NCBI RefSeq assembly: GCF_016026235.1
Contig: NZ_CP065613.1
DNA: 64,000 nucleotides
Strand: one strand, 5' to 3'
Origin: Escherichia coli
Lineage (GTDB): Bacteria; Pseudomonadota; Gammaproteobacteria; Enterobacterales; Enterobacteriaceae
Positions 16,592 to 17,073 of the stretch are shown here, piece after piece (position 1 is the stretch's first letter; each line of letters begins with the position of its first letter). Under the pieces are notes generated by a model. It searched no databases and was not told the DNA's origin. It worked only from the letters and a program-made list of their open reading frames with translations. The position numbers and the translations under genes were made by a program.

Positions 16592-16801
16592 TTTCGTCTT
16601 CCTCTCAACGAGTGAGCTAGCTTGCTTATGGTGCGATGCTGACAAAGTTATCACACCAATTTCCAGAGTCCGAAGATATTTTCGTGAGTTAGATCAATAA
16701 ACGTAGTTAAAAAAATTACTCTCAAAGTGGTAAATCTCGCTGCAGGCCGCGCCAGTACTGGCCTCGCTGTCGTCAGGTAATGTCCCTACAAATATTCGCA
16801 C

Positions 16802-16823
16802 ATTTGTGATGGCTCTCACCTTT
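16802..16823. promoter_or_regulatory. CRP-binding site (TGTGA-N6-TCACc) in divergent uxaCA/exuT control region
   Basis: tgtgatggctctcacc at 16805-16820 matches CRP consensus. Confidence 0.5.
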
Positions 16824-17073
16824 TAAAGTTGTATGACAAGTTATCTTTCTGCCGTCGCAAATCATAAGTCGACGGAATGCAAATTGCCGATTCATTCATT
16901 TGTTAGATGAATCGGGTTAACCGGTACGGAAGCCGAATTAGCACGAAACTTTCATGGCAACGTTCGGGGCGTGCCGGTTTTTTTTCGGTTACCCGGTCGT
17001 AACTAACATCTTCAGCCTCTGGCGGGATGATGGCCGCGCTTCCTGCGGATATAACAAAACGATGAGGTTTTAC

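Follow-up and report, generated by a model that had tools for sequence, protein, structure and literature searches.

How one stretch of intergenic DNA serves two genes for hexuronate utilisation that are transcribed away from each other, uxaC and exuT, is the question raised by this locus. An earlier note had proposed a shared control region, with a strong CRP site and two possible ExuR/UxuR-type half-sites, and had placed no confident operator. The window, to which all positions refer, is the whole stretch of Escherichia coli DNA analysed, 64 kb (64,000 nucleotides) in length.

Genes and intergenic spacer

Positions 16400-17300 have a counterpart of 99-100% identity in 5419 of the 5426 complete E. 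coli genomes, where the two genes are annotated as uxaC and exuT. In an identical locus (RefSeq) the gene order is sstT, ygjV, uxaA, uxaC (minus strand), exuT, exuR, yqjA. The genes and the spacer are located as follows.

13677-15164: uxaA, the next gene after uxaC
15179-16591, minus strand: uxaC, glucuronate isomerase coding sequence (NCBIfam NF002794, 729 bits; RefSeq annotation of the identical locus)
16592-17073: uxaC-exuT spacer, 482 bp
17074-18372, plus strand: exuT, hexuronate MFS transporter coding sequence (RefSeq annotation; TIGR00893, galactonate/hexuronate-type MFS, 427 bits)
18502-19278: exuR coding sequence (NF008571, 565 bits)

The uxaC product, of 470 amino acids, starts from the ATG at 16591: the left boundary previously given for the control region, 16655, is wrong, being the end of a mechanical GTG open reading frame. 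The exuT start previously placed at 17074 is borne out. A mechanical exuT frame of 472 amino acids, starting from the in-frame ATG at 16954 and considered as an N-terminal extension or a leader peptide, was rejected, as its frame and length vary across genera: in the spacers aligned below, this ATG lies in frame 0, 1 or 2 relative to exuT in 24, 22 and 15 cases, respectively, is absent in 18, and opens peptides 6-43 long. As judged from this sequence comparison, the true start is that at 17074, giving 432 amino acids.

Window coordinates correspond to NC_000913.3 coordinates minus 3,228,150. Only 2 of the 482 spacer bases differ from K-12 MG1655 (16765 and 16798), neither within a site. Elsewhere in the window, matches at Rfam gathering thresholds are two naRNA4 (REP-derived) copies, at 3837-3918 and 4038-4116, and the RNase P RNA (rnpB) at 41558-41934, all fitting the E. 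coli 69-70 min region.

For comparison, 80 exuT loci were collected, one genome per species, and the 79 distinct spacers, from more than 20 genera, were aligned by MAFFT. uxaC is found divergent upstream of exuT in 78 of the 80 loci, and the spacer measures 455-486 bp in all 78. Two blocks of the alignment are invariant, 16644-16661 and 16830-16844; the arms of the CRP sites are conserved around variable centres.

The CRP site upstream of exuT

16805-16820: CRP1, TGTGATGGCTCTCACC, centre 16812.5 (22-mer at 16802-16823)

A close match to the CRP consensus had been claimed at this position, with a matrix scan and a comparison with regulon databases suggested as checks. The match is confirmed: tgtgatggctctcacc is located exactly at 16805-16820 and carries nine of the ten specified bases of TGTGA-N6-TCACA, the right arm being TCACC. 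With at most one mismatch, this consensus is matched six times in the 64-kb window, against 1.75 expected; at least three of the other matches (39482, 50129, 4190) are sites listed by Shimada 2011. For the scan, a symmetric 22-bp matrix was derived from 68 RegulonDB sites (Table S4, Shimada et al. 2011), exuT excluded. The CRP1 22-mer scores 13.2 bits, ranking fourth in the 64 kb; 81% of the training sites score lower. In random sequence, a match this good would turn up about 0.95 times in 64 kb, and about 0.007 times in a 482-bp spacer: the score is therefore supportive but insufficient alone, and the case is carried by position, conservation and literature.

The same background rate, of about one match per random 64 kb, could be taken to mean that CRP1 is a chance occurrence, devoid of function. 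This is scarcely credible: across the orthologous spacers the TGTGA arm is present in 79 of 79, the other arm reads TCAC in 63 and TCAA in the remainder, and the 16-mer occurs in 20 different versions, varying mainly in the centre; the site also keeps a fixed distance of 12.5 bp from an adjacent operator, described below. The literature effectively refutes the chance reading, on account of SELEX binding, curation and the cAMP activation of exuT in qPCR. The CRP1 16-mer coincides, letter for letter, with the RegulonDB CRP site ECK120018504, listed for exuT as an activator site at -39.5 (reproduced in Shimada 2011, PMC3105977). In the SELEX-chip table of the same paper GGTGAGAGCCATCACA is entered for the uxaCA/exuT spacer, and both exuT and uxaC are among the known CRP targets recovered by genomic SELEX. 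CRP1 is also listed by PredCRP (PMC5772556), where qPCR shows that exuT is activated by cAMP-CRP, about 9-fold with cAMP; according to its authors, exuT does not fit simple class I/II rules. Catabolite control through a strong CRP site between the divergent uxaC and exuT, as the earlier note had it, is therefore supported by RegulonDB, SELEX-chip and qPCR. CRP1 is already known and curated, and finding it adds in itself nothing new. Binding by CRP in vitro, the -39.5 position and the qPCR activation are taken from the literature; the sequences, scores, conservation and spacing come from the present analysis.

Compared with the K-12 exuT site of RegulonDB/EcoCyc, the one in the window has the same 16-mer core and the same 22-mer; the 42-nt context contains one SNP outside the site (G in the window at 16798, C in K-12), and nothing else of substance.

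Other top matches to the CRP matrix are found in the window at 39479-39500, 50126-50147, 46497-46518, 4187-4208 and 30067-30088. Four of them (tdcA, kbaZ, ygjK/fadH, yhaO/tdcG) are core CRP sequences in Shimada 2011, those of tdcA and kbaZ outranking CRP1; the match at 46497-46518 includes the garP-garD spacer sequence of the same paper, offset by a few bases.

ExuR-type operators

16825-16842, plus strand: ExuR-type operator of exuT, AAAGTTGTATGACAAGTT, adjoining CRP1 and overlapping the probable -10 element AGTTAT (16839-16844)
16645-16662, minus strand: ExuR-type operator on the uxaCA side, AAATTGGTGTGATAACTT (minus-strand reading), including acaccaattt
18455-18472, plus strand: ExuR-type operator upstream of exuR, AAAGTGGTATAACAAATA, the motif seed

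The three sequences, two in the spacer and one upstream of exuR, are alike, and all fit the 18-bp imperfect palindrome AAAnTnGTaTnAcAAnTT. A first matrix, built on these three window sites, was used to scan the K-12 sequence upstream of uxaB, the other classical operon of the exu regulon: two sites were found, scoring 16.5 and 12.3 bits, the maximum over 3000 random 340-bp sequences being 16.1. A second, independent matrix was built on non-spacer sites only, the one upstream of exuR and the two upstream of uxaB. With this matrix, the exuT operator is the best match in the spacer, at 15.4 bits, a score expected 0.09 times per 64 kb; the uxaCA-side operator, with 11.7 bits, is second best.

Both are also strictly conserved. 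The exuT operator contains a 14-mer, TGTATGACAAGTTA, that all 79 spacers share without a change, in each case beginning 12.5 bp past the CRP1 centre; for the uxaCA-side operator, a 17-mer core is identical in all 79 enterobacterial spacers. The published UxuR/ExuR consensus is, we assume, close to AAATTGGTATACCAATTT. From motif similarity, conservation and this presumed consensus, we infer that both spacer palindromes are ExuR operators. A search of literature text for the operator strings returned no relevant match, the primary ExuR operator papers lying outside that search; to judge from titles, separate operators for exuT and uxaC figure in published genetic work on the exu regulon.

Of the two half-sites suggested previously, acaccaattt, whose exact position is 16653-16662, appears to be genuine: it makes up the right half of the invariant operator on the uxaC side. 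The best operator, AAAGTTGTATGACAAGTT at 16825-16842 beside CRP1, had been overlooked. The other half-site, aagtggtaaat (exact position 16725-16735), is unsupported: it matches the left half only, with 8.0 bits and moderate conservation. It is part of an inverted repeat.

16717-16735: inverted repeat TTACYCYC-N3-GRGRGTAAA, containing aagtggtaaat

The arms of this repeat vary between genera in a partly complementary way, as judged by eye. The segment 16725-16735 might be seen as an auxiliary ExuR/UxuR half-site contributing to repression, as its left half, AAAGTGGTA, has the same sequence as that of the operator upstream of exuR, and it is the third-best match to the ExuR matrix in the spacer. 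Yet the right half is missing, the G-T-G-G core is altered in other genera (e.g. AAAGAGGTA and AAAGGAGTA), and 50-90% conservation is seen, where the two real operators reach 100%: an auxiliary role is quite improbable. A terminator on the minus strand, at 16707-16735, was also considered and rejected, its T-run not being conserved.

The operators resemble those of ExuR/UxuR (GntR/FadR-family) regulators in being 18-bp imperfect palindromes, in having kin upstream of both exuR and uxaB, and in the adjacent position of the repressor gene. Sites of the uxu type, in contrast, are built on a TGGT-N4-ACCA core, and reach only about 9-10 bits with the matrix derived from exu sites, which suggests that the sequence preferences of ExuR and UxuR may be partly distinct. 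In the K-12 sequence (L082) they are located as follows.

2351-2368, 2457-2474 and 5404-5421 of K-12 sequence L082: uxu-type operators, between gntP and uxuA and upstream of uxuR

Downstream of exuT a terminator-like hairpin, AAGCCGCC-ttctca-GGCGGCTTTTTC, is followed by the exuR promoter and then by the operator AAAGTGGTATAACAAATA (18402-18472 overall). The exuR promoter is TTTTCA-16-TAAACT (Shimada 2014). The position of the operator at 18455-18472, upstream of exuR, fits autoregulation of exuR.

A second CRP site on the uxaCA side

16683-16698: CRP2, CGTGAGTTAGATCAAT, centre 16690.5

This site, absent from the earlier note, scores 10.7 bits, and together with CRP1 it provides the top two CRP-matrix matches in the spacer. 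It corresponds to RegulonDB ECK120048932 (exuT -161.5) and is also a SELEX-chip match (Shimada 2011, PMC3105977). CRP2 is conserved, and in the 79 spacers its centre always lies 37 bp from that of the uxaC operator. This arrangement bears on the claim of shared control: the region is indeed common to both promoters, but CRP1 itself has the geometry of a class-II site for exuT, and is not necessarily shared.

CRP1 might still activate both exuT and uxaCA, as a single shared site. In the SELEX-chip data the spacer is credited with two targets, uxaC and exuT, and the rigidly conserved spacing of all elements would fit one integrated complex. The uxaC ATG is however 221 bp away from CRP1, to which no plausible uxaCA start comes nearer than 160 bp, and a separate, conserved CRP2 is available at its fixed 37 bp from the uxaC operator centre: a single shared site is unlikely, and uxaCA is probably served by CRP2, its own weaker CRP site.

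The two halves of CRP2 differ, the left one being CRP-like (GTGA) and the right one FNR-like (ATCAA). That it may mainly be an FNR site, or a hybrid FNR/CRP one, is suggested by a FNR ChIP-seq peak assigned to uxaC/exuT by Myers 2013, at 3,242,850 (U00096.2), which coordinate conversion, with an assumed offset of about 1,975 bp, places about 15 bp from the CRP2 centre. The same work, however, implies distinct CRP and FNR sites for the operon, and CRP2 is both selected in vitro by cAMP-CRP and curated as a CRP site; an FNR or hybrid identity seems accordingly even less likely than a single shared CRP1.

Promoter geometry and regulatory model

The start of exuT transcription, at about 16852, is derived second-hand, by adding the 39.5 bp of RegulonDB to the CRP1 centre, 16812.5; the weak -10 element AGTTAT (16839-16844) fits a start near this position. 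On the uxaCA side, all candidate -10 elements are weak and, depending on which one is chosen, CRP2 is centred at about -39.5 to -41.5, -51.5 or -72.5. A simple promoter/terminator scan reported one weak promoter-like match on the minus strand (16890-16861) and no terminator, a result no better than that of shuffles.

Taken together, the divergent uxaCA/exuT region is very probably a catabolite-activated, repressor-gated switch, with CRP1 acting as a class-II site at exuT, ExuR acting by occlusion and CRP2 serving uxaCA. cAMP-CRP, bound at 16805-16820, about 39.5 bp before the start of exuT transcription, would overlap the -35 position; CRP1 would thus stand in for a missing -35 element, with recruitment of RNA polymerase by a class-II mechanism. 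ExuR, encoded downstream of exuT, would bind at 16825-16842, covering -27 to -10 and blocking the polymerase, until released by a hexuronate-derived inducer. As the exuT operator overlaps the -10 element, ExuR would exclude the polymerase even with CRP bound, so that relief from catabolite control and inducer would both be needed. The uxaCA promoter would rely on its own operator, at 16645-16662, and on its own CRP site, at 16683-16698. What we infer in this model is that ExuR occupies both operators, that it acts by occlusion and that CRP2 belongs to uxaCA.

Similar layouts are known from class-II CRP promoters with an abutting repressor operator (galP1, melAB-type), where CRP near -40 replaces the -35 element and the operator overlaps the -10 element and the promoter's spacer region. 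Compared with canonical class-II promoters, the exuT site is at -39.5 rather than -41.5, and its right arm is TCACC (9/10).

Fixed spacing between the regulatory sites

The distance between the CRP2 and CRP1 centres is 122 bp in 77 of the 79 spacers and 121 bp in the other two, and the whole 200-bp core, 16645-16845, has an unchanged length in 77 of 79 species. The DNA between the two CRP sites has a mean identity of only 61%, yet it occurs in just these two lengths. For the flanks, the figures are 73% identity and 10 lengths in the uxaC-proximal segment, 67% identity and 18 lengths in the exuT leader. Between the centres of the two operators there are 180 bp, corresponding to about 17.1 helical turns. 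Near the midpoint of the two CRP sites a further element is found.

16747-16762: GC-rich block CCGCGCCAG-NN-CTGGC, including the 12-bp palindrome GCCAGTACTGGC

In most spacers the arms of this block are conserved and its centre is variable; it is missing in three Superficieibacter-type sequences. When sought upstream of uxaB and uxuA, the block was not found. A reading of the same segment, on the minus strand (CTGGCGCGGCYTGCA, 16747-16762), as a sigma-54 promoter was rejected by eye, the spacing between GG and GC being 2 bp short.

The fixed spacing suggests an integrated or looped complex. Two operators at an invariant distance, with CRP sites between them, are reminiscent of looped divergent or dual-operator systems (gal, deo, ara); in contrast to these, the sole support for ExuR tetramers or looping is here the fixed spacing itself.

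The exuT leader

16852-17073, plus strand: exuT 5' leader, about 222 nt, with its start taken from the RegulonDB -39.5
16853-16876: hairpin P1
16887-16914: hairpin P2
16919-16979: hairpin P3
17008-17034: hairpin P5
17036-17050: hairpin P6
17064-17067: Shine-Dalgarno sequence of exuT, GAGG

The leader is predicted to fold as a string of hairpins, with a z score of -2.05 over its whole length, and contains the invariant motifs CGGUACGGA-ACCGA and AUGGCAAGGUUCGGG. RNAalifold returned almost nothing on the full 79-sequence MAFFT alignments: the helices were recovered only from sub-alignments, with a softer non-compatibility penalty, and are therefore partly derived from the data on which they were tested. 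In the MAFFT alignments, which are not fitted to structure but are those from which the structures were derived, 86.1% and 80.3% of the cells in the named helices are paired, against 21-41% with slid partners. The cells with double changes number 48 and 67; shuffles, which ignore phylogeny, give 15.5 and 23.2, and none of 500 reaches the observed values.

Compensatory changes are present in all five P2 pairs, in five of the seven P5 pairs and in four of the five P6 pairs; in P3 there are one in the outer stem (C-G to U-A, Klebsiella-type) and three in the inner helices. Chimeric hairpins, combining the 5' half from one species with the 3' half from another, are less stable than the native ones: -4.6 against -8.4 kcal/mol for P2, -7.0 against -9.2 for P5 and -5.5 against -7.2 for P6. 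On the plus strand G·U cells are more numerous than A·C cells (271:70 and 60:35), in keeping with the sense RNA of exuT. A scan of 16400-17300 with Rfam 15 gave a best E value of 1.8, with all matches far below gathering, and nothing in the spacer at gathering thresholds.

Hairpin P3 (ACCGGUACG...CGUGCCGGU), followed in E. coli by eight U at 16980-16987, is terminator-like and lies about 90 nt before the exuT ATG; it is missed by the simple terminator scan because its loop is long. The T-run after P3 is present in only 21 of the 79 spacers (Escherichia, most Citrobacter, Salmonella and a few others). By Term-seq, Adams 2021 reported no 3' end at this position under non-inducing conditions, where exuT is repressed. 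Conserved GGA motifs also occur in the leader, one of them in the loop of CGGU-ACGGAA-(G/A)CCG; by count, GGA is not enriched. For CsrA, Potts 2017 found no CLIP peak on exuT, the only effect being that its translation efficiency changed in the csrA mutant.

Discussion

The CRP/ExuR logic of hexuronate catabolism is already curated in RegulonDB and backed by SELEX and qPCR. The identification of CRP1 may be seen as a positive control: a real regulatory site was located from its sequence alone. Fixed spacing, central block and structured leader are the only items which might be new, and are to be taken as leads, not findings.

In a broader and more tentative view, possible but on balance doubtful, the region would form a 200-bp nucleoprotein complex of fixed geometry, through ExuR-ExuR looping or a third factor, and the exuT leader would be an undescribed cis-regulatory RNA. 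For the complex, the view appeals to the absence of tolerated indels between the operators, though the inter-CRP DNA diverges, and to the conserved palindrome near the midpoint. For the leader, it appeals to the maintenance of P2, P5 and P6 by compensatory changes, to the invariant domain of CGGUACGGA-ACCGA and AUGGCAAGGUUCGGG, and to the terminator-like P3 with its U-run in Escherichia, Citrobacter and Salmonella: hexuronate uptake could thus be controlled after initiation.

In evolved PTS-defective strains, a role of ExuT in glucose transport has been reported as well (PMC6989600). A divergent region of invariant length, if true, would be a clean example from nature in which to study looping, or phase-dependent co-regulation by CRP together with a repressor of the GntR family. 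An exuT leader both conserved and structured, if true, would mean that the uptake of sugar acids relevant to life in the gut is also tuned after initiation.
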